Shown: piece after piece, positions 1,496 through 18,578 of the stretch
Layout of the letters: each line of letters begins with the position of its first letter
How positions within the stretch are numbered: position 1 is the stretch's first letter
Virus record (IMG/VR): IMGVR_UViG_2778261535_000010
Length of the DNA stretch: 18,578 bases
Direction: 5' to 3' (one strand)
Source: a virus
Lineage: Duplodnaviria; Heunggongvirae; Uroviricota; Caudoviricetes
Position numbers and translations under genes: made by a program
The notes under the pieces: model-generated
What the model was told of the DNA's origin: nothing
The model's database searches: none
What the model saw: only the letters and a program-made list of their open reading frames with translations

Positions 1496-1497
1496 AA

Positions 1498-2199: not shown

Positions 2200-2301
2200 A
2201 GACTCCCGCTAGCCGGGACGGGCGCGGGGGAGGCATCAACCATGCGGTTGTTGGCCGTGGAACCCGTTAGCCCGTTTCTATTGCAAAACCGAGGTACGCC
2301 A

Positions 2302-2775
2302 ATGAGTGGCCCAAGTTTCAGTATCAGCGGCAAGCCAGTGATGGTGACGCCAACAGCGATCACCAACGGCGTGACGTTCTGGCCCGATCTCGATCTGGCC
2401 GAGTTTCAGAAGGTGCGCACGCTGCCCGCTGATCTGCCGCCAGAAACCGCAGGCGTGGCCCTGCTGGCTGCTATTGCGGAGGTAAACGACGCGCTGGCCG
2501 ACGTGGTGACGTACTGGAACGCGAAAGCCTGCGAGCGGGCCGCAGATGTACCGGGTGCAAAGATGGGCGACGAAACCCAGTTAACAGCCCAGTACAAAAA
2601 AGCGGTCTACGCCCGCGCAAAGGCCGATTTACTGGGGGAGTTCGCCACCATCGGGCGGCGTGAATCGCATCCGGGACAGGAAAGCCAGGACACCCGCGCC
2701 AGTCTGTTGGCCGAGGCGGCCAACGTGATGCGAAACATGCTGCGACAACCTCGCGTTGGGGTGCATCTGATATGA
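2302..2775 (+). CDS. head completion/stabilization protein (gpL-like)
   Basis: ATG at 2302 preceded by GAGG at 2291-2294. The ORF track extends to 2242 but that upstream Met has no RBS. Position after gpM matches P2. Confidence 0.6.
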   Translation: MSGPSFSISGKPVMVTPTAITNGVTFWPDLDLAEFQKVRTLPADLPPETAGVALLAAIAEVNDALADVVTYWNAKACERAADVPGAKMGDETQLTAQYKKAVYARAKADLLGEFATIGRRESHPGQESQDTRASLLAEAANVMRNMLRQPRVGVHLI

Positions 2776-3248
2776 GCCAGCTTGAAAGCCTGACGACATT
2801 TATTACGGAAAATCTGCCGCCTGATGCCATGCAGATGTTTTCCAGTGTGATGGAAGATTGCGGGCTGACACGCAACGCCAAAGCGATGGGAAACAACCAG
2901 CGCCGGATCGGGGTGCTGACTTACACCGGTCGTTTGTCATGGGATGATTTCCCCTACCGCAAGTATTCGCCGGGGCTGATTTATGCGCTGGTGCTGGCCT
3001 GGGTGGATGAGTTCGCCAACGAGCTGCGCGACGAGCTGAGGCTGGATGATCCAAAAGTGGACCCGGAGTTCGACGACGAAGGGGCATGCATTCTGGATGT
3101 GGTCATCCCGCTGGTTGATCCGCTGGTTTTGCGTGAAGCGGAAAACGGCCCGATCCCCTACAAAGGCAAGCGCTGGGAAATCGTGGACCCCGAAATCTGG
3201 GAGGCGTCGCAACTGGAATTTATTGTCCAGCGTGGTGACGCGTCGTGA
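2772..3248 (+). CDS. tail completion protein (P2 gpR-like)
   Basis: 158 aa; start overlaps the gpL stop (ATGA). The motif TYTGRLSWDDF...LIYALVLAWVDE resembles the P2 gpR pattern (TDFTG...PVLAWL) as I recall it; size is close to P2 gpR (155 aa). Confidence 0.5.
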   Translation: MSQLESLTTFITENLPPDAMQMFSSVMEDCGLTRNAKAMGNNQRRIGVLTYTGRLSWDDFPYRKYSPGLIYALVLAWVDEFANELRDELRLDDPKVDPEFDDEGACILDVVIPLVDPLVLREAENGPIPYKGKRWEIVDPEIWEASQLEFIVQRGDAS

Positions 3249-3940
3249 TCCGGGGGGAGCTGAACCAACAACAGCTAAAGCAGATGCGGGAAACGCTGGC
3301 AAAAGCTGACCTTCCCCCGCGTAAGCGCCAGCGCCTTTTATGGCGTATTGCAAAGCTGGGCATTGTCGCAGCGGCAAAACGTCACCAGCGCCAGCAGGCG
3401 GCCCCGGGCGGTACGCCGTGGGAGCCGCGCAAGCGTGGCAAAGGGAAGATGTTAAAAGGGCTGCCCAAGCTGTTGGCCGTGCGCGAAATGCCAGAGATTC
3501 AGGGGGTAAGAATTTACCTCAAGGGCGGGAACTACCGGAACGGGACGAAGCCGATCGCGGCGGGCCTGGTCGGTGCGGTCCAGCAGGACGGCGCACGGAT
3601 CCAGATGAAAGCCAGTAACGCCCCGCGCAAGCCGCAGGCTGACCAGCCAGCGCTACCGCGACAGGCCAAGCGTCTGCGGGCACTGGGCTACAAAACCCGC
3701 AAGGGCAAGCGCTGGGTTAAGCCGTCCAGCAGGCAAATCATGGAAACCATGAGCATGGCCCAGGCGGGATTACTGATTCGAAAACTGAAAGGCACACCAT
3801 CAAAACGCACATGGACTATTGATATTCCTGGTCGCGTTTTTCTGGGGGTGAGCAACGACGAATTTAACCAAATTATTGCGCGGCAAATGCAGGCAATCGG
3901 CTTCGGCTGGGACGTCAACGCGCAGCAAATCAGGGGGTAA
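3245..3940 (+). CDS. virion morphogenesis / tail completion protein (gpS-like)
   Basis: 231 aa; GTG start overlapping the previous stop (GTGA). Lys/Arg-rich central region. The nearest ATG alternative is at 3284. Confidence 0.45.
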   Translation: MIRGELNQQQLKQMRETLAKADLPPRKRQRLLWRIAKLGIVAAAKRHQRQQAAPGGTPWEPRKRGKGKMLKGLPKLLAVREMPEIQGVRIYLKGGNYRNGTKPIAAGLVGAVQQDGARIQMKASNAPRKPQADQPALPRQAKRLRALGYKTRKGKRWVKPSSRQIMETMSMAQAGLLIRKLKGTPSKRTWTIDIPGRVFLGVSNDEFNQIIARQMQAIGFGWDVNAQQIRG

Positions 3941-3942
3941 AA

Positions 3943-5085
3943 ATGACCTGGCCTACAGTCAACGTCAGTCAGAAAAACCGCTTCAACGGCACAACGAACG
4001 ACGTCGAGCGCGTCATCCTCTTTGTGGGTTACGGCGACACTAACATCGGGAAAACCCAGTCGCTTAATACCGGCAGCGATCTGGTTAAAGCTCTGGGCGA
4101 CAAAGACAGCCCGTTAAAAAATATGGTGGCCGCAGCAGCCAATAACGCCGGTCAGAACTGGTTTGCTTACGTGCATGTGCTGGCAGAGCCAGACAAGGGA
4201 GCCGAGGGCTACAAACCAGACGAAGACTGGATGAACGCGGTCAAACAGGCCCAGAGCGTGGCATCCGTGGAAGGGGTTGTCCTGGCATTTGATACCGCCG
4301 ACGCAGCCACCATTAACCGCGCAACGGAAATGCGCGTCACCTTACAGGCCAGTTTTGGGCGTTTTATCTGGTTTGCCCTTGCTGTGGGCGGGCCGGAAAA
4401 GGACGAAGCGTGGAGCGACTATGTGACGCGCCTGGCTGAACTCCAGGACGGTATTGCATCGCCTGGAGTGCAACTGGTCCCGCGTCTGTGGGGTAACGAA
4501 CCCGGCGTCCTGGTCGGTCGCCTGTGTAACCGTTCGGTGACGGTGGCAGACAGCCCCGCCCGCGTCGCAACCGGCGCAGTCACCGCGCTGGGGAGCGACG
4601 GCCTGCCGGTCGACGGGACGGGGGCCGAAATTGATCTGGCCGTGTTGCAGTCCTTGCAGGCGAACCGCTACAGCGTGCCGATGTGGTATCACGATTATGA
4701 CGGCATCTACTGGGCTGACGGTCGCACCCTGGACGTTGAAGGCGGTGATTATCAGGTGATTGAAAACGTGCGCGTGGTTGATAAAGCCTCCCGCCGCGTC
4801 CGTCTGCGTGCAATCCCAAAAATTGCCGATCGTTCACTGAACAGCACACCGGGCAGCATCGCCGCGCATGAAACCTATTTCGGCAAGCCGCTGCGCGAAA
4901 TGGCGATTTCAACCCAGATCAATGGCGTCGAATTTCCGGGCGAAGTGAAGCCACCAAAGGACGGCGACATCACCATCACCTGGACCAGTAGCGAAGCGGT
5001 GCAGATTTACCTTGTGGTTCGACCGTATGAGAGCGCGAAAGAAATCAGCGTCAGCATCGAACTGGACACCTCACTGGAGAGCTAA
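3943..5085 (+). CDS. tail sheath protein (putative)
   Basis: 380 aa, in the size range of contractile sheath proteins, directly followed by a 151-aa tube-sized gene, in a prophage that also has TMP and baseplate genes. AGGGGG RBS. Confidence 0.5.
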   Translation: MTWPTVNVSQKNRFNGTTNDVERVILFVGYGDTNIGKTQSLNTGSDLVKALGDKDSPLKNMVAAAANNAGQNWFAYVHVLAEPDKGAEGYKPDEDWMNAVKQAQSVASVEGVVLAFDTADAATINRATEMRVTLQASFGRFIWFALAVGGPEKDEAWSDYVTRLAELQDGIASPGVQLVPRLWGNEPGVLVGRLCNRSVTVADSPARVATGAVTALGSDGLPVDGTGAEIDLAVLQSLQANRYSVPMWYHDYDGIYWADGRTLDVEGGDYQVIENVRVVDKASRRVRLRAIPKIADRSLNSTPGSIAAHETYFGKPLREMAISTQINGVEFPGEVKPPKDGDITITWTSSEAVQIYLVVRPYESAKEISVSIELDTSLES

Positions 5086-5088
5086 TCA

Positions 5089-5544
5089 ATGACTGAACGT
5101 ATCAGCGGTGGATCGTTCGATGTGAACTACGACAGCATCATGATTCACGTCGAAAACGCCACCGTCACCATTACGGATAACAGCGCCGTTGCGCAGTCGC
5201 GTGGCATCCCGAACGGCCACACGAAAGGGGCAGTTTCGGCGGATGTGGAAGTCGAAGTCGACTCCCAGAACTTTAAAAAGTTTACCGCCGTGGCCCGTGC
5301 CGCAGGTTCCTGGCGATCCATTCCGGCAAAGGACTTTTTGTTCTACGCCAACGCCGGGGACGACGAAGAAAAAATCGAGGTGTTTGGCTGCGTTCCGACG
5401 CTGTCCGACATCGTCAACATCAACCCCAACGAGGCCAGCAAAACCACGAAGAAAATTAAATTCATGGTGACAAGCCCGGACTTTGTCGCGATTGACGGCG
5501 TGCCGTACCTGTCAGCCCGCGACACTCGCGATTTGAAAGGCTGA
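5089..5544 (+). CDS. tail tube protein (putative)
   Basis: 151 aa; starts 4 nt after the sheath stop. Size and position are typical for a tube protein. Confidence 0.5.
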   Translation: MTERISGGSFDVNYDSIMIHVENATVTITDNSAVAQSRGIPNGHTKGAVSADVEVEVDSQNFKKFTAVARAAGSWRSIPAKDFLFYANAGDDEEKIEVFGCVPTLSDIVNINPNEASKTTKKIKFMVTSPDFVAIDGVPYLSARDTRDLKG

Positions 5545-5548
5545 CACG

Positions 5549-5860
5549 ATGATGAACGGAGAAACGTCACTGCTTGAAAAGCTGTTGCTTATCGGGGCCG
5601 TGATTGGCCTGGGGCAACTGATGGTCAGCAATGAGCGAATCACAACCCGCCTGCTGGTCGGGCGGATGATTCTGGGATCTGCGGTCGCACCGCTGGCCGC
5701 AATCCCGCTGCTGAAATTCCCCGATATGCCGGAACTGGTCGTCATTGGGCTGGCCTGCGCCCTGGGCATTCTGGGAAGCGCGTTTATTGAGGCCGGGTTA
5801 AAGCGCTGCCTGGATATGTATATCAAGCGATGGGGGAGCAAGCGCAATGAAACTGAGTGA
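5549..5860 (+). CDS. holin (class I-like, three predicted TM segments)
   Basis: 103 aa; tandem Met-Met start. Three hydrophobic stretches (LLEKLLLIGAVIGLGQLMV, LLVGRMILGSAVAPLAAIPLL, LVVIGLACALGILGSAFIEAGL) and a charged C-terminus (KRCLDMYIKRWGSKRNETE). Lies immediately upstream of the endolysin. Confidence 0.6.
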   Translation: MMNGETSLLEKLLLIGAVIGLGQLMVSNERITTRLLVGRMILGSAVAPLAAIPLLKFPDMPELVVIGLACALGILGSAFIEAGLKRCLDMYIKRWGSKRNETE

Positions 5861-6185
5861 AAAACAGCAACTTTTCACGGTGATGATCGCCAACCTGATT
5901 CATTTTGCCGAAGAAAAGGGTTATCGCCTGACGTTTGGCGAAGCGTACCGCACGCCGGAACAGGCCGCGCTTAACGCAAAAAAAGGGAGCGGCATTACTA
6001 ACAGCCTGCATACCCAGCGCCTGGCGGTGGATTTTAACCTGTTTATTAACGGCGATTACCAGACCGACAGCGCCGCATATCGCCCACTGGGCGAATACTG
6101 GGAATCTATCGGCGGATCGTGGGGTGGCCGTTTCAGTAAGCCGGACGGGAACCATTTCAGTCTTGAGCATAACGGGGTTCGCTGA
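5847..6185 (+). CDS. endolysin, L-alanyl-D-glutamate peptidase (peptidase M15 family)
   Basis: 112 aa; GGGGGAG RBS. Contains SLHTQRLAVDF (His-x6-Asp) and a C-terminal DGNHFSLEH His, the zinc-ligand pattern of T5-type M15 endolysins. Start overlaps the holin 3' end. Confidence 0.75.
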   Translation: MKLSEKQQLFTVMIANLIHFAEEKGYRLTFGEAYRTPEQAALNAKKGSGITNSLHTQRLAVDFNLFINGDYQTDSAAYRPLGEYWESIGGSWGGRFSKPDGNHFSLEHNGVR

Positions 6186-6568
6186 TGCGCAATTTGCTGG
6201 GTCTTTTGCTGATTCTGGTCGCTGCAATGTCAGCGGGCTGGCAGGCGCATGACTGGCACGACGCAAAGCTGCAACTCGCTGCCAGTGAAGCGGCAGAACA
6301 AACACGCCAGATTGTCGTTGAAGTGACGCAACAGTCTGGCGAAGCGCTGGAAGCAAAACTCGCGGGGCTAAAAGCCAATGAAAGGCACACGGAACGGGTT
6401 ATTCGCACAGAAATCATTAAGCCGGTTTTTAGCAACGTTTGCGCTTCTGATGATTACGTCCGGTTGTTCAACGAAAGTGCAGATCAAGCCGAACGAGAAT
6501 TATCAGGAAAACCAGCTGACACTTTGCCCGGTCACGCTGCCACGTCTGGCCGGACCGACCGGAAATGA
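6185..6568 (+). CDS. i-spanin (Rz-like)
   Basis: 127 aa; ATG overlaps the endolysin stop (TGATG). N-terminal TM segment LLGLLLILVAAM followed by a charged, probably coiled-coil, periplasmic region. Confidence 0.65.
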   Translation: MRNLLGLLLILVAAMSAGWQAHDWHDAKLQLAASEAAEQTRQIVVEVTQQSGEALEAKLAGLKANERHTERVIRTEIIKPVFSNVCASDDYVRLFNESADQAERELSGKPADTLPGHAATSGRTDRK

Positions 6569-6674
6569 CTTTGACGCGGCGCTGACAGCCTACCGGCAGA
6601 TGTATACCGACTGCGCCGCCCGACATAACGCCCTGGTGGGCATCATTCGACAACGTAAGGAATTAGCACAATGA
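6378..6674 (+). CDS. o-spanin (Rz1-like lipoprotein), +1 frame overlapping Rz
   Basis: Starts inside Rz in another frame and extends past the Rz stop. Signal peptide with a lipobox-like FALLMITSGC. The true start codon is uncertain. Confidence 0.55.
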   Translation: MKGTRNGLFAQKSLSRFLATFALLMITSGCSTKVQIKPNENYQENQLTLCPVTLPRLAGPTGNDFDAALTAYRQMYTDCAARHNALVGIIRQRKELAQ

Positions 6675-6940
6675 GTAAACCGAAAAAAATCGCCATGACC
6701 GTGGCGGGCGTAAATCTGAGCTTTGAGCCGAATAAAACCGCGTTTAACAACCTGCTTAACGAAATGACCATGACCAATAAGGTTGCCCCTATGGTGACGT
6801 ATCTGGGCCGCATTGTTGATGCCGAGTGTAAAGAGTCGCTCAACAAGCTGATGGAAGATTATCCGGGTTGCGAAATGCAGATCGTCGAGAAGGTTAACGA
6901 GATTTACTCCCCCAAACTTGAGATCGAAGTAAAAAACTGA
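6671..6940 (+). CDS. tail assembly chaperone (gpE-like), zero-frame product
   Basis: 89 aa; lies directly upstream of the tape measure gene; ends in the slippery heptamer A_AAA_AAC followed by TGA. Confidence 0.65.
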   Translation: MSKPKKIAMTVAGVNLSFEPNKTAFNNLLNEMTMTNKVAPMVTYLGRIVDAECKESLNKLMEDYPGCEMQIVEKVNEIYSPKLEIEVKN

Positions 6941-7128
6941 CGGCGCGGGTGGCGGCCATTCGCAAGAATGCGCTTGAGCAATACCTTGCCCTGCGCCGCT
7001 ACTACCTCCCGCACGAAGCCGACGACGAAGAAAGCATCGCCCGCGCCCTGTGGCTGGACGAGTATTTTGCCCAGACCCGCGCCAGCAAGACGGCGGAAGG
7101 GATAGCCATCGCATTTAACGGAAACTGA
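6671..7128 (+). CDS. tail assembly chaperone, -1 frameshift fusion product (E+E'-like)
   Basis: Slippery A_AAA_AAC at 6931-6937 in the zero frame. The -1 frame is open from 6937 to the TGA at 7126-7128 (63 extra codons, LTARVAAIRKNALEQYLALRR...IAFNGN) and has no start codon of its own. It ends 1 nt before the tape measure ATG. Confidence 0.6.
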
Positions 7129-7129
7129 T

Positions 7130-9244
7130 ATGAGCCACCTGGATTTTACCCTGAGCCTGATCGATAAGCTGACGCGGCCATTAAAAACGGCCCAGTCTTC
7201 GCTGTCTGGCTTTGCTGAAAAATCGCAGGCATCTTTTACAAAAATCGGGATCGGTGCGGCGGCTGTCTGGGGCGTGGCGCAGTCCATCGCGGGCGTGGTG
7301 GGTCCGGCATATGAGATGAACGCCGCACTTGCAGAAGTGGGTTCCAAAGGCGTGGCAGAGGACGCGCTGAAGCGTCTGTCCGGCGAAGCTATGCGATTCA
7401 GTATGCGCTACGGCAAAGGGGCCGTTGATGTGGTCCGGTCAAGCTACGCGATGAAAGGTGCAATGGCGGGCCTGTCCGATCTGGACCTGCCCCGCGTCAC
7501 CATCGCGGCCAATACCCTTGCGGCAGGCGTCAAGGCCAGCGGCGAAGAGGCAGGCGAATACATCGGCGCGATGGCGTCACGTTTCAACGCGGAGTTGTCC
7601 AGTCTGGGCCATGTGCGTTTTGCCGAAGAGCTGGCAGGGAAAACCGCGTACATGGTGCAAAACTTCGGCGTGAAAATGCAGACCATGCAGGAGCTTATCG
7701 AGGGGACGAAAAGTGCCGGTGCTGACTTTGGCGTCAGCCTGGATGAACAGTTCGCCGTCCTGGGTACGCTTTCGCGCACGCTGGGTACTGAGGCCAGCGG
7801 GATCTACGAGCAGTTTTTACGCAGCGCCCCGGCTGCCGCTGAAAAGCTGGGTATGAGCTTTGTCGATGCCACCGGAAAAATGCTGCCGATGGGCGACATT
7901 CTGCAAAAACTCCAGAGTAAATACGGGCAGAGCATTGAAGGGAACGTCAAGGCACAACAGGCGCTGGACGCCGCGTTCGGTGGCGGTGCTGACGTTATCA
8001 AAAAGCTGTACGGCCAGCAGGATAAATTAAATCGCAGTATCACCGAGCTGGGCCGAAACGACGGGATGAAACGCGCCCAGGAAATGGCCGCACGAATGGC
8101 CGAGCCGTGGGAGCGTATCAAAGCGACATTCTTTGCCATTCGCGTGGCGATTGGTAACAGGCTGATCCCTATTCTGTCACCGCTGATGAACCGTATTGCC
8201 GACGTGGGGACAAAATTTGCCCGCTGGCTGGATATGTTCCCGAATATTGCCCGCTGGCTGGGTTACATCACCCTGGGCGTGCTGTCCTTCGGGCTGGCCG
8301 GGGCGGCGGTCAATATCGTGATGGGGGTCTTTGGCTTCACCATGATGGGGCTGGCCGCAATCGCAAAAGTGCTGGGCGGTGCATGGAAACTCCTGTTATG
8401 GACGCTCAACCTGTTGCGTCCGTCCCTGCTGACGACGCGCATCGGTCTGGCCGCATTATGGATCCAGTCAAAATTGCTGGCGTTGTGGACGGGCGTCTGT
8501 CGCATCGCGCTTGCTGCATGGAATATCGCGTTAAAGGCCGGGGCCATTGCCATGCGGGTTTACGGTGCGGCGACCATGTTTGCCGGGGCTGCAATGCAAT
8601 TCCTGATGAGTCCGATCACCCTGATTATTGCCGGACTGGCGCTTCTGGCTGTGGGGGTCTGGTATGTCGTCACCCACTGGGAAGAACTGGCGGCAGCGAT
8701 CATGGATACGGCGGCTTTTGCCTGGGTGATGTCAGTCGCTGAACAGGTGGGACAGGTGTTTGCGCAGGTCTGGCAATCCATTACTGACGGCTGGGCCGTG
8801 GTGGTTGATTTCTTTGCCGGTCTTTCCCCGCTCGCCACCTTTGAAGGGTTCGCACAGACCATCGGCGGGGTATTCAGCAAACTTTTCGACGTCCTCAAAA
8901 ATACCTTTGCATCTACCTATAACTGGATTGTTGAGAAGTTAAACAAGATCCCCGGCGTCAACATCGACCTGAAAACCGTTTCGCCACCGGCAGCGGCTGC
9001 CGTTCCGGCAAACGCGGTCGTTCCTGACAGTGCTGCAGGTTCGTCGAAGCTGAACAGCCCGTCCGTGCTGACGGGGAACCGAATTAATGCAGACATCCCA
9101 CGCGGCGGCCTGATGAGTCAGGTTAAAACCGACAGCAAAACCGCTGTGGATAACCGTAAATCGTGGGGCGACACCTACATCAACGCCCCCAATGGAATCA
9201 CCCCGGCCCAGCTGGCTGAATGGCAGGAGCTTAACGCAGGATGA
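7130..9244 (+). CDS. tail tape measure protein
   Basis: 704 aa; follows the frameshifted chaperone; Ala/Gly-rich with a long central hydrophobic, helix-rich block (NIARWLGYITLGVLSFGLAGAAVNIVMGVFGF...). Confidence 0.85.
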   Translation: MSHLDFTLSLIDKLTRPLKTAQSSLSGFAEKSQASFTKIGIGAAAVWGVAQSIAGVVGPAYEMNAALAEVGSKGVAEDALKRLSGEAMRFSMRYGKGAVDVVRSSYAMKGAMAGLSDLDLPRVTIAANTLAAGVKASGEEAGEYIGAMASRFNAELSSLGHVRFAEELAGKTAYMVQNFGVKMQTMQELIEGTKSAGADFGVSLDEQFAVLGTLSRTLGTEASGIYEQFLRSAPAAAEKLGMSFVDATGKMLPMGDILQKLQSKYGQSIEGNVKAQQALDAAFGGGADVIKKLYGQQDKLNRSITELGRNDGMKRAQEMAARMAEPWERIKATFFAIRVAIGNRLIPILSPLMNRIADVGTKFARWLDMFPNIARWLGYITLGVLSFGLAGAAVNIVMGVFGFTMMGLAAIAKVLGGAWKLLLWTLNLLRPSLLTTRIGLAALWIQSKLLALWTGVCRIALAAWNIALKAGAIAMRVYGAATMFAGAAMQFLMSPITLIIAGLALLAVGVWYVVTHWEELAAAIMDTAAFAWVMSVAEQVGQVFAQVWQSITDGWAVVVDFFAGLSPLATFEGFAQTIGGVFSKLFDVLKNTFASTYNWIVEKLNKIPGVNIDLKTVSPPAAAAVPANAVVPDSAAGSSKLNSPSVLTGNRINADIPRGGLMSQVKTDSKTAVDNRKSWGDTYINAPNGITPAQLAEWQELNAG

Positions 9245-9576
9245 GTACCGAACCGTTATACATCGACCTTTTGATCACTGACGGCGATTTCACGCTGGAC
9301 AGCGGCAACGAGCCGCGCCGTTGCGATAACCGCGACAGCATCACCCAGGACATTATTCACAGCATTCTGGAAAGCGGTATCACCACCCGCCTGATCGGTG
9401 AGCGCAGCCCGACAATGCGCGGTGACGTGCTGACGCAACTGTCCTTACTGGTGGAAAGCGACGAACGTCTGGTCCCCGGCACCATATTGATCACCGAAGA
9501 AACCCTTTCGCGGTTGTATGTCACGGCGGAAACCTACGATTTCGGCCCTGTCGGTACAGAGGTTAACTATGACTGA
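9241..9576 (+). CDS. baseplate protein, possibly gp25/gpW-like wedge
   Basis: 111 aa; ATGA overlap with the TMP stop. Weak gp25-like pattern (DSITQDIIHSILESGITTRLIGER). Sits immediately before the baseplate J gene. Confidence 0.4.
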   Translation: MSTEPLYIDLLITDGDFTLDSGNEPRRCDNRDSITQDIIHSILESGITTRLIGERSPTMRGDVLTQLSLLVESDERLVPGTILITEETLSRLYVTAETYDFGPVGTEVNYD

Positions 9577-10753
9577 GAAACCCGACATTGATTTTGAAAA
9601 AGTGCTGAATGACAGCGGGATGCCCGCGACAGAGGCCGAAATTACGGCGGCATTTAAAGCCACCGTGCAGGCGGAAGGGTTCGTCACAAATACGTCGAGA
9701 ATGTCACCTTTCTGGCGGCTGATTTCGAAGATTGTCACCACGCCGGTGTTATGGCTGCGGGCGGCGCTGATCGATGTGGTTCTGCGCAATATGTTTGTCG
9801 CGACGGCCACCGGTCCAATGTTGCGCCTGCTGGCCTGGGCGGTCCATATCGTGCCTAAACCCGCCAGCGCTGCCGCTGGCGTGCTGCGGTTCTACAAGCT
9901 GAACGCGGCGGATGTGGTCGTCGTGCCAGCCGGAACACTGGTGCAAACCGAGCGTATTAACGGCGTGGTTTACGTGCTGGCCGTGAATGAAGACGTGACG
10001 CTGCCTGCCGGGGTTGAAAGCGGGCTGGTTCCCGTCACGGCGACCGGCACCGGTAGCGGCTATAACCTTGCGCCCGGCTATTACCGGATCTTACCTGTTG
10101 CGGTGGCCGGGATTGCCAGCGCGGTAAACGAGGACGAATGGCTGATTACGCCAGGGGCTAACGAGGAAAGCGACGACGAGCTGCGCGACCGGACCCGCAA
10201 CCAGTTTAATCTGGTAGGTAATTACCACTCTGACGCTATTTACCGCAGCATGATTGCCAGCGTGCTGGGCCTGAGCGTTGATCGCATTTACTTTTTGCAC
10301 GATGCCCCGCGTGGGCCGGGTACGGCAAATGCTTACCTGTTGCTGGACAGTGGCGAAATATCACAGCCCTATATTGATGCGGTTAACGACTATGTGAATA
10401 CCCAGGGCCACCACGGACACGGTGATGATCTGCAGTGTTATGCCATGCCGGAAACCAGCCACACCCTGGCGGTGACGGTCTACGTCAAAAGCGTGGAAAA
10501 CATGGAAGCGGAAGACCTGAACGCGTTAAAAACCGGTATTACTGACCTGATTCGTTGCGCGTTTCGCGAGAACGCCAATTACGACGTTAAAAAGACGCAG
10601 CCCTATTCGCGCTATTCCTTTTCGAATCTGGGCCGCGAGATCCACAAGGCTTTTCCGGTTGTCGATTCACTGCATTTTTCACTGACGGATATTGTCAGCG
10701 AACTGTCGGTCCCGCGCCTGTCAGGGTTAACGGTGGAGGTTGAAAATGACTGA
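9569..10753 (+). CDS. baseplate J-like protein (gpJ/gp47/gp6 family)
   Basis: ATG at 9569 with GAGG 7 nt upstream (the track ORF begins at 9518 without an RBS). About 394 aa. Position between the wedge and gpI-like genes matches P2 W-J-I order. Confidence 0.7.
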   Translation: MTEKPDIDFEKVLNDSGMPATEAEITAAFKATVQAEGFVTNTSRMSPFWRLISKIVTTPVLWLRAALIDVVLRNMFVATATGPMLRLLAWAVHIVPKPASAAAGVLRFYKLNAADVVVVPAGTLVQTERINGVVYVLAVNEDVTLPAGVESGLVPVTATGTGSGYNLAPGYYRILPVAVAGIASAVNEDEWLITPGANEESDDELRDRTRNQFNLVGNYHSDAIYRSMIASVLGLSVDRIYFLHDAPRGPGTANAYLLLDSGEISQPYIDAVNDYVNTQGHHGHGDDLQCYAMPETSHTLAVTVYVKSVENMEAEDLNALKTGITDLIRCAFRENANYDVKKTQPYSRYSFSNLGREIHKAFPVVDSLHFSLTDIVSELSVPRLSGLTVEVEND

Positions 10754-11339
10754 GTTTTCAACCTTGCTTGCCGGTCTGAAATTGCCGTCGTGGCTGAACA
10801 AAGGCGACCCCGCCAGGCTGTTGCGTGGCTGCGTGAAATTCTGGTCGCAGGTGTACGGGTGGATTACCTGGCCGTTAAAGCAGTTTGACCCACTGGTCTG
10901 CCCCGAACCGCTGTTAAACCTGATTGCCTGGGAACGCGACATCGTTCGGTTTAAGGGGGAGCCGCTCGACATTTTCCGCAAACGGGTGAGTTACGCATTT
11001 ATCAATGCGCAGCAGGCCGGAGAGGTGGCGGGCTTTATTGCCATTTTTGAGCGACTGGGGATTGGTTACGTTGAATTACTGGAGCGGCAGGACGGACTCG
11101 ACTGGGATGTGATTGTCGTTCGGGTGACAAACAGTCAGATTGCGGAAAATGGCGATCTCCTGCTGGAAATTATCCGTAAATATGGGCGTACATGCCGCCG
11201 TTACCAATTTGAAGTGATCACAGCCCTGCCACTGAATATCAATATCGGCTGGTATCAGGGGGAATATATTTGCTGGCCTGCCACCCTGAGTGATGTGAAT
11301 AACCAGCCCCAAATAACATACAGCGCAAGTTTGAAGTAG
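10746..11339 (+). CDS. tail protein I-like (baseplate, gpI family)
   Basis: ATG at 10746 with GGAGGT RBS; overlaps the J-like stop by 8 nt. About 197 aa, immediately upstream of the tail fiber. Confidence 0.55.
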   Translation: MTEFSTLLAGLKLPSWLNKGDPARLLRGCVKFWSQVYGWITWPLKQFDPLVCPEPLLNLIAWERDIVRFKGEPLDIFRKRVSYAFINAQQAGEVAGFIAIFERLGIGYVELLERQDGLDWDVIVVRVTNSQIAENGDLLLEIIRKYGRTCRRYQFEVITALPLNINIGWYQGEYICWPATLSDVNNQPQITYSASLK

Positions 11340-11350
11340 AGGAAAAACCT

Positions 11351-13036
11351 ATGTCACAGGCTGTTATTACAAAAGCATTTACAGAGTGGAAAGCCCAGCA
11401 GGCTATTAATAATCAGCCCGTCACGCTGGATGAATTTATTTTTGCGTATATTCCGGGGTTGGATGCTGATAAGCCGATTGATAATACCGAGACAGCACCC
11501 GCAGTGGATAAAATTGTTTATCGTCAGGTGGTGAGTAAATCCGGTGTTGTGAATGAAAACTCTGTCGTTTATTCCGTCACTATGGGGGCGGATGTGGGTG
11601 ATTTTGATTTCAACTGGATCGGTCTGGCAAATAAAGCCACCGGTACACTGGCGATGATTATTCATGCCCCGACCCAGCGTAAAATCAAAAATGCGAACGG
11701 CCAGCAGGGAAACGTTCTGGTCCGTTCCATGCTGATGGAATACAGCGGAGCCAGGGAAGCAACGGAAATTACCACCCCGGCAGAGACATGGCAGATTGAT
11801 TTTACTGCCCGGCTGGCGGCAATGGATGAACGCCAGCGCCGCGAAAATATCGATCTGTATGGCGCAGCGGCTTTTTTTGATTCGGGCTATCTGGTAGCCA
11901 AAACCGGCAATCAATTTTTTGTCACAAAGGGGGCGGGATACGTCGCCGGGTTACGTGCTGAATTGCCCGCAAACATGAATATCACTGCATCCGCGAAGCC
12001 AACAAAGGTCTGGCTTGATGTCAGCTGGACCGGGACGTTAACGAGCGAATGGGCAGTGCAGAGCAAAATCACCGTTGCCGCAGATCTTGCCGATTATGTA
12101 CTGGGCGGTGTGCAGCATTATGTCTTTGCGGTGGCGAGTATTGATGCTACCGGAAATGTCATGGACCTGCGCCCGAAAGGCACGCTGAACCACCAGGCGG
12201 CCAGTGATGCGCTGAAAAAGCATGAGCAGTCGCGAAATCACCCTGATGCCTCAATCAGCGAAAAAGGGTTTGTGCAGTTAAGCAATGCCACGAACAGCGA
12301 TTCCGAGACACTGGCCGCCACGCCAAAGGCAGTAAAAGCGGTGAATGAGAATGCGAATAAGCGCGTTCCTTCCGAACGCAAAGTGAATGGTAAGCCACTG
12401 ACGGAAGATATTGAGATTACGTCGATAACGGGTAATGCAGGGACTGCCACGAAGCTGGCTACAGCCCGCACTATAGGGGGAGTGGGGTTTGATGGTTCGG
12501 CTAACATTAATCTGCCGGGTGTAAACACTCAGGGAAACCAGAACACTACGGGTAATGCAGGGACTGCCACAAAGCTGGCTACAGCTCGCACTATAGGGGG
12601 AGTGGAGTTTGATGGTTCGGCAAACATTAATCTGCCGGGGGTAAACACTCAGGGAAACCAGAACACCACAGGTAACGCTGCAACAGCCACAAAGTTGCAT
12701 ACAGCTCGCACAATTAATGGCGTTGTTTTTGACGGTACGAAAGATATTGCTATTTCAGCAAGTGCGATTGGTTCCTACACAAAAGCGGAATCTGATGCAC
12801 GATTTCAGATAATTGTTCCTGTTTCTGGTGCGGTGGGTACTTATGCCTTCGCCCGAATTGAATCAGGTAATACCACTATTAATTTTGGTTCCACTCTGCC
12901 CGGTTCAGTACTTCGTGCAACATGTGGAGATGGCACTCTGGCCGGTAATGCTCTTGCAGGTACATGGCGATGTTGTGGAGCAACTTGGGGATCTTCCTGG
13001 TACAGTCGAAATACTGTATGGATTCGCATTGTATAA
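11351..13036 (+). CDS. tail fiber protein
   Basis: 561 aa. Contains SETLAATPKAVKAVNE and tandem KLATARTIGGVxFDGSANINL repeats typical of phage tail fibers. Followed by a tail fiber assembly gene. Confidence 0.85.
   Translation: MSQAVITKAFTEWKAQQAINNQPVTLDEFIFAYIPGLDADKPIDNTETAPAVDKIVYRQVVSKSGVVNENSVVYSVTMGADVGDFDFNWIGLANKATGTLAMIIHAPTQRKIKNANGQQGNVLVRSMLMEYSGAREATEITTPAETWQIDFTARLAAMDERQRRENIDLYGAAAFFDSGYLVAKTGNQFFVTKGAGYVAGLRAELPANMNITASAKPTKVWLDVSWTGTLTSEWAVQSKITVAADLADYVLGGVQHYVFAVASIDATGNVMDLRPKGTLNHQAASDALKKHEQSRNHPDASISEKGFVQLSNATNSDSETLAATPKAVKAVNENANKRVPSERKVNGKPLTEDIEITSITGNAGTATKLATARTIGGVGFDGSANINLPGVNTQGNQNTTGNAGTATKLATARTIGGVEFDGSANINLPGVNTQGNQNTTGNAATATKLHTARTINGVVFDGTKDIAISASAIGSYTKAESDARFQIIVPVSGAVGTYAFARIESGNTTINFGSTLPGSVLRATCGDGTLAGNALAGTWRCCGATWGSSWYSRNTVWIRIV
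12428..12750 (+). repeat. in-frame 120-bp tandem repeat inside the tail fiber gene (two near-identical copies plus a diverged third)
   Basis: Copy 1 (12428-12547) and copy 2 (12548-12667) differ at about 5 positions. From 12668 the homology continues but is diverged (GNAATATKLHTARTINGVVFDG). Confidence 0.9.
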
Positions 13037-13049
13037 TTTGGAGGTGCTT

Positions 13050-13448
13050 ATGTTTGAGAATGCAACGATTGATAACCCTCGAACCACAAATATCAATATT
13101 TATATTGATGTGGATATTCACCTGAATGATCAATCAATTACTTTTACTTCGATGCCTGACGACTCCGAAATATATAGTGTTGAGATTTATAAACGCGCTT
13201 TAAATGGCGAGTTTGGAAAAATTATAACTATTGAAAATGATGTTTTTTCGGCAAACAAACTACAAAAAGACATGTTGCAATCAAGGGCGGCTGAATCAAT
13301 TACTGTTCTTGAATATGCGGTTGAATTGAAAATGGCAACGGAAAAGGAAATGCAACTACTCAATGAATGGAAAAAATATGTAGTTTTATTAAGCCGCGTT
13401 AATTTAACAAACCCTAAATGGCCGGAGGTTCCGGGCGATGTGGCGTGA
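13050..13448 (+). CDS. tail fiber assembly protein (Tfa/gpG-like chaperone)
   Basis: 133 aa; GGAGG RBS with ATG at 13050. C-terminal NPKWPEVP motif typical of Tfa proteins. Markedly AT-rich compared with neighbouring genes. Confidence 0.7.
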   Translation: MFENATIDNPRTTNINIYIDVDIHLNDQSITFTSMPDDSEIYSVEIYKRALNGEFGKIITIENDVFSANKLQKDMLQSRAAESITVLEYAVELKMATEKEMQLLNEWKKYVVLLSRVNLTNPKWPEVPGDVA

Positions 13449-14160
13449 ATCGGTTGTAAAGATTGCTGATGATATGGGGGCGCTGGCCTGTTCCATTGTC
13501 CCCGCGCATCCCTGGGTTTACGGTCTGGGACAGAACACGGATTCAGGCGGTTATCTTAGCCCGGCCAATGCGATGGGATATCTTGCTAAAAAGCTGTTAT
13601 CCGGTGTCGGTAGCGGTGACGTCATCGTCATGATGGTGGCGGAGAATACCCACGACGCTTTTATGCAGGGACTGAATAAACTGTCCACCGTATTTCCGGC
13701 CCCGGTATTTACGCAGGTAAGCCGCATGGCCGCAGCCGCCGCAGAACTCAGCACGGTAAAAATGCAGTTGCCGGTTAAAGCCGACGTATTGCCAGCCAGT
13801 GCGCCGTTATCTGTCTCAACCAACCGGCTGGCGCTGAATGCCCAGCGGGTTGCCGCCGCTCAGCTGGCCGCCTCAGTCAGTACCACCACAACAGATCTAA
13901 AAAATCAGGTTACGGGCTTTATTCAGGAACGGGCCGGTTTGCTGGCCTCACTCAGCCAGGGACTGGACGATCTGAAAGCCGCCAGTGCGAATATTTTTTC
14001 ATTCAGTTACAGCGGGAGTTATGCCGTTGCAGCCGCTGAATTGCTGAAAGGCATCCCGCAAACAACGGCAGTGCATACCGCCGCGATGATGTTTATCGGG
14101 GATTCGTTATCTGACTTAGAGAAGATGCTACATGAGCCAGACCGCATTACTCGCGCTTGA
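13438..14160 (+). CDS. hypothetical phage protein (unassigned, Ala-rich)
   Basis: 240 aa; GGAGG RBS 9 nt upstream of ATG 13438; overlaps the Tfa stop. Phage-like G+C. No motif I can assign. Confidence 0.4.
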   Translation: MWRESVVKIADDMGALACSIVPAHPWVYGLGQNTDSGGYLSPANAMGYLAKKLLSGVGSGDVIVMMVAENTHDAFMQGLNKLSTVFPAPVFTQVSRMAAAAAELSTVKMQLPVKADVLPASAPLSVSTNRLALNAQRVAAAQLAASVSTTTTDLKNQVTGFIQERAGLLASLSQGLDDLKAASANIFSFSYSGSYAVAAAELLKGIPQTTAVHTAAMMFIGDSLSDLEKMLHEPDRITRA

Positions 14161-14674
14161 TGGTGAAGGGATCGCCATGCAAAACATGCTGGTTTCACCT
14201 TCCATGCAGTTTCAGGAGAAGGACCAGTCGGGCCAGACATCGAGCACGGCCAATGCTGAACAGGGTATCAAGGCCAAAGAGCTGCGCGTGTCGGGTCTGG
14301 TGACATTCGACGACGAAGCCGTTTTACAGCGGCTTTTCCAGCTGGCATCCGCAACCGAAGCCAGCGGCGCACTGAAAAAGTACCGCGTCGCAAATGCGAC
14401 GGCAACGGCTATCAACCTTCGTGAAGCCACGTTCACCGGCCAGATTGATGCCGTACCGCAGGAGGATCGCCTTGCCTGGCAGGTAAGTTTTACCCTGCGT
14501 GAAAAAGGCAGCGTCCCGGAAAAACGACAGGCCCGCAAAGGTAATGCGACGGCCAGCACCAAGCAAACGGGGTCAAAGGGCGCGGGTTCGGCTGCCGGTG
14601 CTGACGAGCCAGCCGACAAAATGAGCTGGTTTGAAGAAAAGGTCTTAAAGCCGGTCAACGATGCGCTGGGGTAA
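14132..14674 (+). CDS. hypothetical phage tail protein (possibly gpU-like tube initiator)
   Basis: 180 aa; alternative start at 14177 has a better RBS (GAAGGG). Assignment rests only on size and its position just upstream of the hub/spike gene. Confidence 0.35.
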   Translation: MSQTALLALDGEGIAMQNMLVSPSMQFQEKDQSGQTSSTANAEQGIKAKELRVSGLVTFDDEAVLQRLFQLASATEASGALKKYRVANATATAINLREATFTGQIDAVPQEDRLAWQVSFTLREKGSVPEKRQARKGNATASTKQTGSKGAGSAAGADEPADKMSWFEEKVLKPVNDALG

Positions 14675-14681
14675 TTAAACG

Positions 14682-16406
14682 ATGAAACCAATTAAACGCC
14701 TGTACCTTTCCTCTGATCCGGTCCATCTGATTGACTGCAATATCGTGCTGGAGCTGAACGCGTGCGGTCGGGGGTTTATTACGGCGGGGACCGAGACAGA
14801 TTACACCGGTAAAATAGTGCGTATCGATGTTGGTTATGATGGTCTGGTCCTGCGCTGGTTTACCGGGTATGTCGAGCGGTCACAGCCTGCTGATAATGGA
14901 ACATGCCGGTTGTTCGTGCGTGAGCTGGTAGGCATCTTTGATAAATTGTGGCCGTGTTCTTTCCAGCATCCAACGCTGCGCCAGATTACTGACTGGATAA
15001 GTGAGCAAAGCGGGCTGGCCGTCACAACGCCGGTCGGCGCTGCTTATGCAGATAAACCGATCCCCCACTTTACGCACAGCGGCACGGGCTATCAGCTTCT
15101 TGCCATTCTGGGCCGCGCATTTTCAGTGACGGATTATCTCTGGTATCAGCTGCCGGACGGGGATGTCTTCGTCGGCGCTGCGGATCACAGTCTTTTTGCG
15201 GGTAAACCAGTGGAGATCCCGCACGAATTTAGTCAGGCATCGGCAGGCGGTAATTCAATGGTTGTGCCGATGATTCAGAGCCTGCGCCCCGGCGTTGACG
15301 TCAACGGCCATCGGCTAAACCAGGTCCGGCTAAATAACGACGATATGGCAATCACCTGGCAGCCACGCAGCAAAGCCAACGGCCAGCCATTGCAAAAATC
15401 ACCGATTCAGCGGCAGATTGAAAACGCATTCCCGGAGCTGGCAAGCGGCCTGCATCTTCCAAAGTTCGCCAGAGTGGAAGCACCAAGCGAGGATGTATCA
15501 GGGGGGAATATTGCCGATCCATTCCGCCCGCGCTATGCCGTGGATCTCCAGCTGCTTGACGAAGACGGCAAGCCAGCCGCAAATACGCCGGTTTATTCTG
15601 CCGTTCCGCTACCTGTACCAATGGCGGGGAGCGAGTCGGGAATGTTCCAGTTTCCGCCCCCTGGCACGCTGGTTGAAGTCGGGTTCACGGAGGGGCGGCA
15701 GGATAAGCCCTTTGTGCGCCAGATTATGGCGGAGGGGCATAACCTGCCAGCGGTTAAACCCGGCGAGCAATTGCAGCAACAGCGCGATGGTGTATCGCAG
15801 CGCGTGACGGTTGCCGGAGACTGGGAACGCCAGACGGACCAGACAATTCGCGAAAACTCCATGACTCGCGAAGTCACCACCGACGAAGAGATCCGCAAAG
15901 TGGTTGTCCGTGAAACTACGGTCCAGGCAACAGATAAAACAACCGTGCTGGGCACGGCCACACTTCTGGCCGGGGCGGTGGTCCATATCAGCGAGGGTGA
16001 TTACAGTATTGGCACATCCGGCAACCTGACAGTAACCTGCAGCAAGGACAATTCCGTCAGTGTTGGCCGGAACGTGAAACGGGACGTCGCGGGCAATGTT
16101 ACAGACGACGTGAAAGGGAATGTCACGTCAAACGTCAGCGGCGCACTGACTGAAAAAATCAGCGGCATCCGCCGAAGTGTGGCCCAGGCGCAACAGTTGA
16201 TTGCCCCGGTGGTAAAACTGGGAAGCGAAGAGATTAACGTCCTGACACTACTCACTGACACCCTGGACGTGGTGAGGGTGCTGGCAGAGACTGCCGCATC
16301 ACATACTCACCCCAATACGGGGACCAGCGGGCAGGCTGCGCAGTTCACCGCAACGGCCACTAAAACCGGTACATTGAAAAGCAAATACGGCCCCCTGATA
16401 GCCTGA
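14682..16406 (+). CDS. baseplate hub/central spike protein (VgrG-like architecture; gpV-like C-terminus, possibly fused to a gpD-like N-terminus)
   Basis: 574 aa. The C-terminal region has octapeptide V-x-G repeats (DVAGNVTD / DVKGNVTS / NVSGALTE / KISGIRRS) visible as 24-nt periodicity around 16057-16170, and an H-x-H motif (SHTHP, about 16301-16309) like spike apex iron sites. It is the last gene before att, as gpD is in P2. Confidence 0.55.
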   Translation: MKPIKRLYLSSDPVHLIDCNIVLELNACGRGFITAGTETDYTGKIVRIDVGYDGLVLRWFTGYVERSQPADNGTCRLFVRELVGIFDKLWPCSFQHPTLRQITDWISEQSGLAVTTPVGAAYADKPIPHFTHSGTGYQLLAILGRAFSVTDYLWYQLPDGDVFVGAADHSLFAGKPVEIPHEFSQASAGGNSMVVPMIQSLRPGVDVNGHRLNQVRLNNDDMAITWQPRSKANGQPLQKSPIQRQIENAFPELASGLHLPKFARVEAPSEDVSGGNIADPFRPRYAVDLQLLDEDGKPAANTPVYSAVPLPVPMAGSESGMFQFPPPGTLVEVGFTEGRQDKPFVRQIMAEGHNLPAVKPGEQLQQQRDGVSQRVTVAGDWERQTDQTIRENSMTREVTTDEEIRKVVVRETTVQATDKTTVLGTATLLAGAVVHISEGDYSIGTSGNLTVTCSKDNSVSVGRNVKRDVAGNVTDDVKGNVTSNVSGALTEKISGIRRSVAQAQQLIAPVVKLGSEEINVLTLLTDTLDVVRVLAETAASHTHPNTGTSGQAAQFTATATKTGTLKSKYGPLIA

Positions 16407-16477
16407 CAAAAAGCGGCATAACCGCACACATCACCAGACACCACAGAACGCGCCACAGCAGGCGCAAATATTAAAGG

Positions 16478-16515
16478 TCGCCAACGTGCGGCCTTTCGTT
16501 CGTTCGTTCAACAGC
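16478..16515 (+). terminator. putative intrinsic terminator of the late operon
   Basis: GGUCGC/GCGGCC stem (one G-U pair) with a 6-nt loop, followed by the U-rich UUUCGUUCGUUCGUU, about 70 nt after the hub/spike stop. Confidence 0.35.
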
Positions 16516-16952
16516 GGCCCACAGCGTAAGCGACAGCAGGCAGACGGAAGCGGATCCAGGACGGAAACGGCGCTACACCGCACCCGCCTGCGCAGTTTGG
16601 ATCATAAAAATTTTGCAAAAGAAATTTTGCGCAAAGCACCCCGCCAGCCTGCGCCGCTGATGGGATTTTGCATCCTGCGGGCGTTTGCACGCTGCGCAAA
16701 GATTTGCAGCACTTTGCAAAAGTCACCGCGCAGTCAGTCGCTAACTGACTGGATAACATGATGTTTTTAAAAGGATCGTTTTGGTTTTCGTGACGATCAA
16801 AATGATTCGGTGGCATCCGGTAGTTTTCGGACGCGGATATCGTGAAGCCTTGCGCGGCGCGGGCTGGCGGCAGGTTTGCTTTGATTTGGGTTTTGCAAAA
16901 TGATGCACGAAGATTTGATAAAAGAATCTACAGCGAAGGGGGGGGAAGTATT

Positions 16953-16984
16953 AAAAAACCCCGTTTTGTGGACGGGGTTTGTTT
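16953..16984. terminator. bidirectional hairpin terminator
   Basis: CCCCGT (16959-16964) and ACGGGG (16972-16977) form a 6-bp stem with a 7-nt loop, flanked by AAAAAA on the 5' side and TTTGTTT on the 3' side. On the minus strand it is followed by six U. Confidence 0.45.
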
Positions 16985-17005
16985 GATGTGGTCAATGTGT
17001 GGACG
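16967..17005 (+). promoter_or_regulatory. candidate arm-type integrase binding sites (three direct repeats)
   Basis: TGTGGACG at 16967-16974, TGTGGTCA at 16987-16994 and TGTGGACG at 16998-17005, within 80 bp of the att core. They resemble the P2 Int arm-site consensus (TGTGGACA) as I recall it. Confidence 0.45.
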
Positions 17006-17045
17006 TTGTAAGAAATAAATCCATTTATTTCAGTAGATTACAGGC

Positions 17046-17072
17046 AAAAAATAAGCCCGTGTAAGGGAGATT
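17046..17072. other. P2-type attachment site core (prophage-host junction, attR or attL)
   Basis: AAAAAATAAGCCCGTGTAAGGGAGATT matches the 27-bp P2 att core from memory. It coincides with the 3' terminator half of cyaR. Phage-type sequence lies to the left and host genes to the right. Confidence 0.65.
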
Positions 17073-17132
17073 ACACAGGCTAAGGAGGTGGTTCCTGGTA
17101 CAGCTAGCATTTTATGGGTTATGTTTTTCAGC
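17046..17132 (-). ncRNA. cyaR: CyaR (RyeE) Hfq-dependent small RNA
   Basis: The reverse complement reads GCTGAAAAACATAACCCATAAAATGCTAGCTGTACCAGGAACCACCTCCTTAGCCTGTGTAATCTCCCTTACACGGGCTTATTTTTT, matching the E. coli CyaR sequence as I recall it, including the terminator hairpin and U tail. It lies downstream of yegQ as in E. coli. Confidence 0.85.
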
Positions 17133-17139
17133 GAAACGG

Positions 17140-17182
17140 ATGATAACCTTAATAAATGCAGCTGTATGTGATCGGTTTCTAA
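17140..17182 (-). promoter_or_regulatory. cyaR promoter with class II-type CRP site
   Basis: On the minus strand, a TATCAT -10 hexamer (17140-17145) sits about 7 nt upstream of the CyaR 5' end. A CRP-like site TTAGAaaccgaTCACA (17167-17182) is centred near -42. cyaR is known to be CRP-activated. Confidence 0.5.
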
Positions 17183-17216
17183 GAATTTTCCATCCGGGAA
17201 AAATAATCGAAATTAA

Positions 17217-18578
17217 TCACTTACCGTGGGGGTTACGCGTGGTTTCCCCGGAGAAATTACGCATCAGCAGCGCGTAATTTAGCTCAAGATCCTGCGGCAC
17301 CGGGATCCACACAGTATAACCATCGCCTGGTGCGACCGGCATAGCTTCACCTTTGGCGTTTTCCATATGCTCAAGGGTAAAGTTAATGTTGCCTTGCGGC
17401 GTCATCAGCTCAAGGCTGTCGCCAACGGAGAATTTATTTTTCACCGCTACCGCCGCGAGGTCGCCCTTGCGCTCACCGGTAAACTCACCAACAAACTGCT
17501 GGCGGTCAGAAACTGAATAACCGTATTCGTAGTTCTGATAATCGTCGTGAGTATGACGACGCAGGAAACCTTCGGTATAGCCACGATGCGCCAGACCTTC
17601 CAGAGTTTCCAGCAGGCTGGTATCGAATGGTTTGCCCGCAGCGGCATCATCGATAGCTTTACGATAAACCTGTGCGGTGCGTGCGCAATAGTAGAAAGAT
17701 TTGGTACGGCCTTCGATTTTCAGCGAATGCACGCCCATTTTGGTCAGGCGTTCTACATGGGCGATGGCGCGCAGATCTTTCGAGTTCATGATGTAAGTGC
17801 CGTGCTCATCTTCAAACGCGGTCATATACTCGCCCGGACGCTGGGCTTCTTCGATCATAAACACTTTGTCAGTTGGTGCGCCGATACCCAGCGTCGGCTC
17901 AACATTTTGCACCGGAATCGGCTCGTACTTGTGTACGATGTTGCCAACGTCATCTTCTTTCCCTTCCTGGACGTTGTACTCCCAGCGGCAGGCGTTGGTG
18001 CAGGTGCCCTGATTCGGATCGCGCTTGTTGATGTAGCCAGAGAGCAGGCAGCGACCAGAGTAGGCCATACACAGCGCGCCGTGAACGAAGATCTCTACCT
18101 CCATATCCGGCACCTGATTGCGGATCTCTTCAATCTCTTCCAGCGACAGCTCGCGAGAGAGGATCACGCGGGTCAGGCCCATTTGCTGCCAGAATTTCAC
18201 CGTCGCCCAGTTCACGGCGTTAGCCTGTACCGAGAGATGGATCGGCATTTCAGGGAAGTGCTCACGCACCAGCATAATCAGCCCTGGATCGGACATAATC
18301 AGCGCATCCGGCCCCATTTCCACCACCGGTTTCAGGTCACGGATAAAGGTTTTCAGCTTGGCGTTGTGCGGTGCAATGTTGACCACGACATAAAACTTTT
18401 TCCCCAGCGCATGGGCTTCATTAATGCCGAGCTGAAGATTTTCGTGGTTGAATTCGTTGTTGCGCACACGCAGGGAGTAACGCGGCTGGCCCGCATAAAC
18501 AGCATCTGCGCCATAAGCGAAAGCGTAACGCATATTTTTCAGCGTTCCCGCCGGGGAAAGGAGTTCCGGTTTAAACAT
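17217..18578 (-). CDS. yegQ: peptidase U32 family protein YegQ (tRNA hydroxylation protein TrhP)
   Basis: Complete 453-aa ORF; the window ends exactly at its start codon. MFKPELLSPAGTLKNMRYAFAYGADAVYAGQPRYSLRV... matches E. coli YegQ as I recall it. Has the conserved neighbourhood with cyaR. Confidence 0.85.
   Translation of the reverse strand: MFKPELLSPAGTLKNMRYAFAYGADAVYAGQPRYSLRVRNNEFNHENLQLGINEAHALGKKFYVVVNIAPHNAKLKTFIRDLKPVVEMGPDALIMSDPGLIMLVREHFPEMPIHLSVQANAVNWATVKFWQQMGLTRVILSRELSLEEIEEIRNQVPDMEVEIFVHGALCMAYSGRCLLSGYINKRDPNQGTCTNACRWEYNVQEGKEDDVGNIVHKYEPIPVQNVEPTLGIGAPTDKVFMIEEAQRPGEYMTAFEDEHGTYIMNSKDLRAIAHVERLTKMGVHSLKIEGRTKSFYYCARTAQVYRKAIDDAAAGKPFDTSLLETLEGLAHRGYTEGFLRRHTHDDYQNYEYGYSVSDRQQFVGEFTGERKGDLAAVAVKNKFSVGDSLELMTPQGNINFTLEHMENAKGEAMPVAPGDGYTVWIPVPQDLELNYALLMRNFSGETTRNPHGK

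Follow-up and report, generated by a model that had tools for sequence, protein, structure and literature searches.

Positions 17,046–17,072 of the window, as we call the whole 18,578-nt stretch of DNA analysed here, are very probably the integrase-distal (right-hand) junction of a 31.7-kb temperate prophage of the P2 family (Peduoviridae), integrated site-specifically in the 3′ end of the E. coli small RNA gene cyaR. Among the evidence for this reading are the duplication of a 22-bp core at both prophage ends in other assemblies, the P2-type attachment-site arm that meets cyaR at this point, and the uninterrupted site found in most complete E. coli genomes.

The host side: cyaR and its terminator

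The cyaR (ryeE) gene lies on the minus strand at 17,046–17,132 and is intact. All of its 87 nt are identical to the K-12 ncRNA cyaR (b4438; 87/87), and the Rfam family CyaR_RyeE (RF00112) matches the minus strand at 17,049–17,134 with 100.7 bits against a gathering score of 47 (E = 1.8e-19), its covariance model being covered in full (positions 1–85 of 85). The location, too, is that of cyaR: the promoter and the yegQ–cyaR intergenic region follow at 17,133–17,216 (minus strand; 84/84 bases identical to K-12), and adjacent to them lies the host gene yegQ/trhP at 17,217–18,578 (minus strand), which is 97.6% identical to K-12 b2081 and bears the same annotation in the E. coli matches. A first-pass annotation, made from the letters alone, had taken cyaR and yegQ for host DNA, and these comparisons bear it out. 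The window ends exactly at the yegQ start codon; at its other end, it starts inside the scaffold gene gpO.

RNA folding, a terminator scan and the structure line of the Rfam family agree on an intrinsic CyaR terminator hairpin at 17,054–17,081 (minus strand), with an 11-bp stem and a 6-nt loop. In the fold, the stem AGCCUGUGUAA/UUACACGGGCU pairs 17,081–17,071 with 17,064–17,054; folding and terminator scan place the loop UCUCCC at 17,070–17,065 and the tail UAUUUUUU at 17,053–17,046. The 27-mer at 17,046–17,072 takes in the U-tail, the loop, the whole 3′ half of the stem and a further 2 nt of its 5′ half, in agreement with the original description. Judged by its sequence, cyaR should be functional in the lysogen, where expression of CyaR as a CRP-dependent, Hfq-binding RNA and its normal termination are predicted to continue.

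The attachment core

The 27-mer AAAAAATAAGCCCGTGTAAGGGAGATT occurs once in the window, on the plus strand at 17,046–17,072; a further copy with up to three mismatches was found neither in the window nor in 200 shuffles of it. It equals base for base positions 24,356–24,382 of the P2 RefSeq genome (NC_001895), annotated 'attP' and 'Int attP core', as the first-pass annotation had stated. But is this core also that of the phage? The integrase-side copy, found in other assemblies, reads AAAAAATAAGCCCGTGTAAGGGCGTTT and agrees with the P2 core at 25 of 27 positions, being exact for the first 22 only: P2 has AGATT at positions 23–27, whereas the attP of this phage has CGTTT and so differs at 23 and 25. 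At the window junction, bases 23–27 (AGATT) are host cyaR sequence. The phage's own attP thus lacks the full 27-bp P2 core; the 27/27 match in the window is supplied by host bases, and the identity of the 27-mer to P2 therefore reflects cyaR, not this phage.

The identity between attP and attB of this SI7-like phage comprises only the 22 bp AAAAAATAAGCCCGTGTAAGGG (17,046–17,067, plus strand). This segment, duplicated at both prophage ends and recovered as an exact direct repeat beside the integrase gene in other assemblies, is the effective core; of the CyaR terminator it encodes the U-tail, half of the loop and the stem's 3′ half. The earlier proposal of a P2-type 27-bp att core at the junction is therefore right in that the 27-mer is present, but not in its extent, as the phage duplicates 22 bp and the remaining five are host bases. 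The same holds for the proposal that the terminator of cyaR is partly rebuilt from the phage-borne core: the gene is identical to that of K-12 and shares these 22 bp with the phage, not the full 27.

Phage DNA to the left of the junction

Positions 1–16,902 (plus strand) carry head, lysis and tail genes of the prophage, as shown by identity to Salmonella phage SI7 and by the Pfam labels of the called genes. These comprise a P2-family capsid, small terminase, gpL, gpR, sheath, tube, holin and endolysin, as well as tape measure, baseplate J, tail fibre, chaperone and two more tail-module proteins. The region is 96% identical to SI7, SW5 and SW3 (30 kb; Peduoviridae, Irrigatiovirus); for SI7 against window positions 1–17,072, a comparison that covers the window part of the 31.7-kb element, the identity is 96.4% over 93%. 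Homology to SI7 ends at 16,902, just short of the att region, and a P2-type P arm follows at 16,985–17,045, so that the sequence left of the junction is phage-type, as had been claimed. SI7, SW3 and SW5 share the gene order, and in them attP and int likewise follow the tail module. In SI7, the integrase gene comes directly after the point matching 16,902, which places attP exactly where the phage DNA of the window meets cyaR.

At positions 12,370–13,418, where the tail-fibre gene reaches its 3′ end and the chaperone region begins, the window matches neither SI7 nor the E. coli relatives, and its GC content falls to 0.43 from about 0.57 elsewhere; the segment looks like a swapped host-range cassette. 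The tape-measure gene is a single 704-aa ORF in the window (7,130–9,244) and is called as two ORFs of 518 and 180 aa in two metagenome-derived ENA copies (loci L132 and L134, 2,449–4,563), which may contain a frameshift or be misassembled there.

A P2-type attP and integration module

Window positions 16,985–17,045 align with the P arm of P2 attP. Int arm-type binding repeats (GATGTGGTCAATGTGTGGAC) at 16,985–17,004 (plus strand) are 20/20 identical within the P2 'Int P arm' (24,293–24,320), and an IHF-site-like segment (AATAAATCCATTTATTTCA...) at 17,014–17,047 (plus strand) aligns with the P2 'IHF' feature (24,324–24,357), its 5′ half being nearly identical. Just upstream of the P arm, the terminator scan places a phage intrinsic terminator at 16,956–16,980 (plus strand), in the position of the P2 ogr/F-operon terminator; in the alignments, P2 24,265–24,288 is its positional equivalent. 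Direct repeats of the Int arm type are present on both arms, GATGTGGTCAATGTGTGGAC on the P arm and CTGTGGACACAGTGTGGACA on the P′ arm (locus L129); the published consensus of the arm repeat is tgTGGaCa (PMC3448106). When the P arm and core of the window are joined to the P′ arm of the identical prophage in another assembly, the reconstructed attP is colinear with all annotated P2 features: terminator, Int P arm, IHF, core, Cox boxes and Int P′ arm. The IHF site and the Cox boxes are putative, named for their alignment with the annotated features of P2.

The 335-aa tyrosine integrase shares 87% identity with P2 Int and only 52% with SI7 Int. The gene order is that of P2 and of a P2-family module, with int followed by an HTH_3 repressor (C) and then Phage_Cox (Pfam Phage_integrase, HTH_3 and Phage_Cox). 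Apart from P2-type arm repeats (TGTGGACA), the att region of SI7 is unrelated; together with the low identity of the integrases, this means that the integration specificity differs from that of SI7. An attP taken from SI7 was considered and ruled out on the same grounds and by the end of homology at 16,902. With a P2-type int/att module and SI7-like head, lysis and tail genes, the element is a mosaic: not P2 itself, but an SI7-like (Irrigatiovirus-type) backbone carrying P2-type integration functions. It also departs from P2 in layout, as ogr precedes the P arm in P2, whereas here ogr adjoins the portal gene and the P arm follows a non-coding stretch of 550 bp.

The second core copy

Draft contig NMHT01000019.1 (GCA_002511955.1), whose first 18,578 nt make up the window, starts mid-prophage. 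The second core copy is missing from the window because the contig begins inside the prophage, and its absence is therefore not counted against integration. Since the att region of SI7 is unlike that of the window, the integrase end was reached indirectly: we searched with the 941-aa ATPase of an identical contig and then looked up the contigs that encode it. A second draft assembly of the same prophage (GCA_020296055.1) also breaks inside the prophage, within the ATPase gene.

In the Logan contig SRR11430528_89, which is 100% identical to the window over the 11.5 kb compared, the core variant given above lies between yegR and the gene for the 335-aa integrase, in the same orientation as the core of the window; the 22-bp repeat beside the integrase is found at 2,227–2,248 of locus L129. 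The ENA contig ERZ27237685 k111_33979 is 99.77% identical to the whole window (43 mismatches, no gaps), and its stitched sequence holds both 22-bp copies as direct repeats at 2,227 and 33,893, 31,666 bp apart. A relative with about 95.6% identity sits at the same locus in 18 complete E. coli genomes, and in the one of these that was examined, E. coli FWSEC0003, a second core copy lies between int and yegR. The second copy predicted for the int-proximal end was thus recovered in all three sources, and the core is duplicated at both prophage ends as an exact 22-bp direct repeat, as in P2-type integration. From these identical and near-identical copies we infer that the window's own genome would carry the same integrase-side junction.

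The flanks follow the pattern expected for recombination inside the repeat: on the integrase side, host-type sequence lies to the left and phage-type sequence to the right of the core, and on the cyaR side the order is reversed. Strand exchange would have to lie within the 22-bp segment; as the two junctions are identical throughout it, the crossover position is resolved no more finely than this.

But could the phage DNA beside cyaR be a decayed, non-excisable remnant like the cryptic prophage PR-X of K-12, with the 27-mer being the native end of cyaR and no second copy in the genome? The window does begin at the contig start inside the prophage, with its own integrase end outside the sequence, but the ORFs are intact across all 17 kb of its phage DNA, and the identical or 99.77% identical copies found elsewhere have the full set of int, C, cox, gpA, portal, terminase and second core. 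Remnants evidently persist at this site: PR-X (ogrK–yegZ), whose RefSeq prophage feature begins at cyaR nt 70, has the same junction of P arm, core and cyaR. Of its classical P2-type phage, about 0.6 kb is all that is left (ogr and part of D), whereas the window shows one end of a complete 31.7-kb element that probably belongs to a different genus. Kluyvera species, too, have the 27-mer as part of their native cyaR, and most of them have unrelated, non-phage left flanks. Weighing these points, we consider a remnant quite unlikely. The integrated, complete prophage that we favour should be able to excise. An assembly artefact, in which phage and host contigs were misjoined at a short shared repeat, has a negligible probability: the source assembly is a draft with a contig that begins inside the prophage, but the same junction recurs in independent NCBI, ENA and Logan assemblies and in the 18 complete E. 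coli genomes with the related prophage.

The empty site and the distribution of the core

The unoccupied site was sought in 5,426 complete E. coli genomes with an 800-bp query in which the yegR-side flank is joined to the core and the cyaR side, and it was called where at least 80% of the query was covered in one place. In 4,562 of the 5,424 genomes with a match (about 84%), yegR, core, cyaR and yegQ are contiguous, with yegR about 160 bp left of the core and no phage genes between them. The uninterrupted site anticipated in prophage-free relatives therefore exists, mostly as a single contiguous piece; a minority of the 4,562 carry small inserts, such as the ogrK–yegZ remnant of K-12. In the roughly 860 remaining genomes, the site is split, the pattern expected of an occupied site. 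That the DNA left of 17,046 is ancestral host DNA, with no insertion at all, is refuted by this comparison and by the 96% identity of the left flank to a sequenced phage, the nearest fact to any support for it being a short fossil P arm left of the core in 'empty' sites, and we give it next to no credence.

Lysogens at the cyaR site should yield two junction types, and both are seen in IMG/VR: among the 122 exact 22-mer matches listed, about 54 read P arm, core and cyaR, and about 65 read yegR side, core and P′ arm. An exact scan of the GTDB species representatives for the 22-mer returned 21 stretches, confined to Escherichia/Shigella, Kluyvera and two records titled Enterobacter hormaechei. 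The match lies at the 3′ end of cyaR in all cases but one, the exception being the integrase-side copy of a prophage in Escherichia ruysiae, where both junctions are present. The same exact-match scan found no 22-mer among the Salmonella species representatives, and the notion of a core shared by enterobacterial cyaR genes in general was dropped. Kluyvera intermedia and one 'E. coli' record with a Kluyvera-like cyaR have a P arm resembling that of the window. The record titled E. coli CP178308.1 shows a Kluyvera-type cyaR sequence and P arm, and the two records titled Enterobacter hormaechei an E. coli-type cyaR (GTDB; loci L136, L135 and L146); these records may carry the wrong label or come from unusual genomes.

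In 'empty' E. coli sites, the sequence that adjoins the core on its left looks like a P2-type P arm (GATGTGGTCAATGgaagacGGTGACCAG...) that has decayed and carries a 16-bp deletion. This fossil arm, GATGTGGTCAATG...GGTGACCAG, abuts the core in the examined sites of E. coli, Shigella and related Escherichia (L129, 2,182–2,226; L155, about 600–660; L156, 2,620–2,700, in K-12). Escherichia sp. MOD1-EC7003 has a longer and more complete version that includes the IHF-like ATAAATCCTTCTGTTTCA, and the fossil arm is absent from the Kluyvera sites without a phage P arm. This suggests that the attB of E. coli may itself be the scar of an older lysogeny; if so, the E. coli DNA directly downstream of the CyaR terminator would be phage-derived.

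Mechanism and relation to known systems

As in classical tyrosine-recombinase integration, Int, together with IHF, would recombine attP with the 22-bp identical stretch at the 3′ end of cyaR. Recombination inside the shared 22 bp would duplicate the segment at both prophage ends and regenerate cyaR base for base, and a site that leaves the gene unchanged could be used without loss of the sRNA. We propose that the phage Int would act on a core in which 22 of the 27 P2 positions are common to attP and attB; with its differences from P2 at positions 23 and 25, this core amounts to a natural experiment on the part of the 27-bp P2 core that is required. Where does the module come from? P2-like phages are known to exchange integration specificity (PMC3448106). 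With moderate confidence, we read the element as an Irrigatiovirus (SI7-like) backbone that acquired a P2 int–att module with a 22-bp core, and the 'empty' E. coli site as the scar of an older P2-type lysogeny.

As a P2-type attachment site, cyaR is already known, and the only departures here are the 22-bp instead of 27-bp core and the non-P2 backbone. The preferred E. coli site of P2 is called locI in the P2 literature; a literature search for an explicit equation of cyaR with locI found indirect statements only. The genome paper of E. coli W gives 'cyaR RNA' as the site where Wphi2 (P2-like, E. coli W), the K-12 ogr-D′ remnant and P2*B (P2-like, E. coli B) are inserted (PMC3032704); it is by this listed site that we liken Wphi2 and P2*B to the present element. 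A 2013 paper on temperate-phage adaptation, in a passage citing Wassarman and colleagues 2001, already names ryeE in E. coli as a phage target (PMC3603311); recognition of the site dates from the early surveys of sRNAs.

More widely, phages integrate at the 3′ ends of tRNA, tmRNA and sRNA genes, among them ssrA (Fels-2, SopE-phi) and, in Salmonella, ryeB/sdsR (PMC3448106, PMC3603311, PMC3333887). These cases are alike in that the phage core duplicates the end of a structured-RNA gene and the gene is regenerated; the target here appears to be the terminator of an Hfq-dependent sRNA, not a tRNA-like fold. The junction is a clean example of a temperate phage landing on an sRNA terminator without destroying the gene, and it brings no new principle. 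Its value is modest and lies in the int/att module with a shortened 22-bp core on a non-P2 backbone and in the fossil P arm at the 'empty' E. coli site; in addition, marking the prophage boundary correctly helps to annotate the draft genome.

Non-coding stretch and accessory genes near attP

Between the last tail-module ORF and the P arm, about 320 nt at 16,600–16,920, inside the non-coding region 16,407–16,955, fold far better than shuffled controls (z = −5.5 on the plus strand and −6.2 on the minus strand). The stretch has a long closing helix, with 16,632–16,657 paired with 16,854–16,883, and three to four palindromic TTTTGCAAAA motifs (16,611, 16,712, 16,891), and it is conserved in SI7 and the E. 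coli relatives. An Rfam search of 16,380–17,050 at a permissive E-value gave only sub-threshold chance matches (rimP leader, isrJ, PsrR1). It may represent a phage ncRNA or a group of sites to which proteins bind.

In FWSEC0003 (locus L002, 32,351–33,316), a 1.07-kb insert annotated as an AbiH abortive-infection gene lies between this non-coding stretch and the P-arm terminator, at a point corresponding to about 16,955–16,963 of the window. The remaining 17 complete genomes of E. coli that carry the related prophage have the same AbiH annotation, and the gene is absent from the window's prophage and from the IMG/VR locus L081; the position is an accessory-gene slot right beside attP. Outside the window, the full prophage (loci L128 and L129, 10,001–12,826) encodes the 941-aa ATPase (SMC_N/AAA) between gpA and the ogr and portal genes, a slot described in PMC13586616 as the main hotspot for defence in P2-like phages. 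One source labels distant homologues of this ATPase (about 33% identical) DndD, and the FWSEC0003 relative carries a different protein, of 925 aa, in the same slot.
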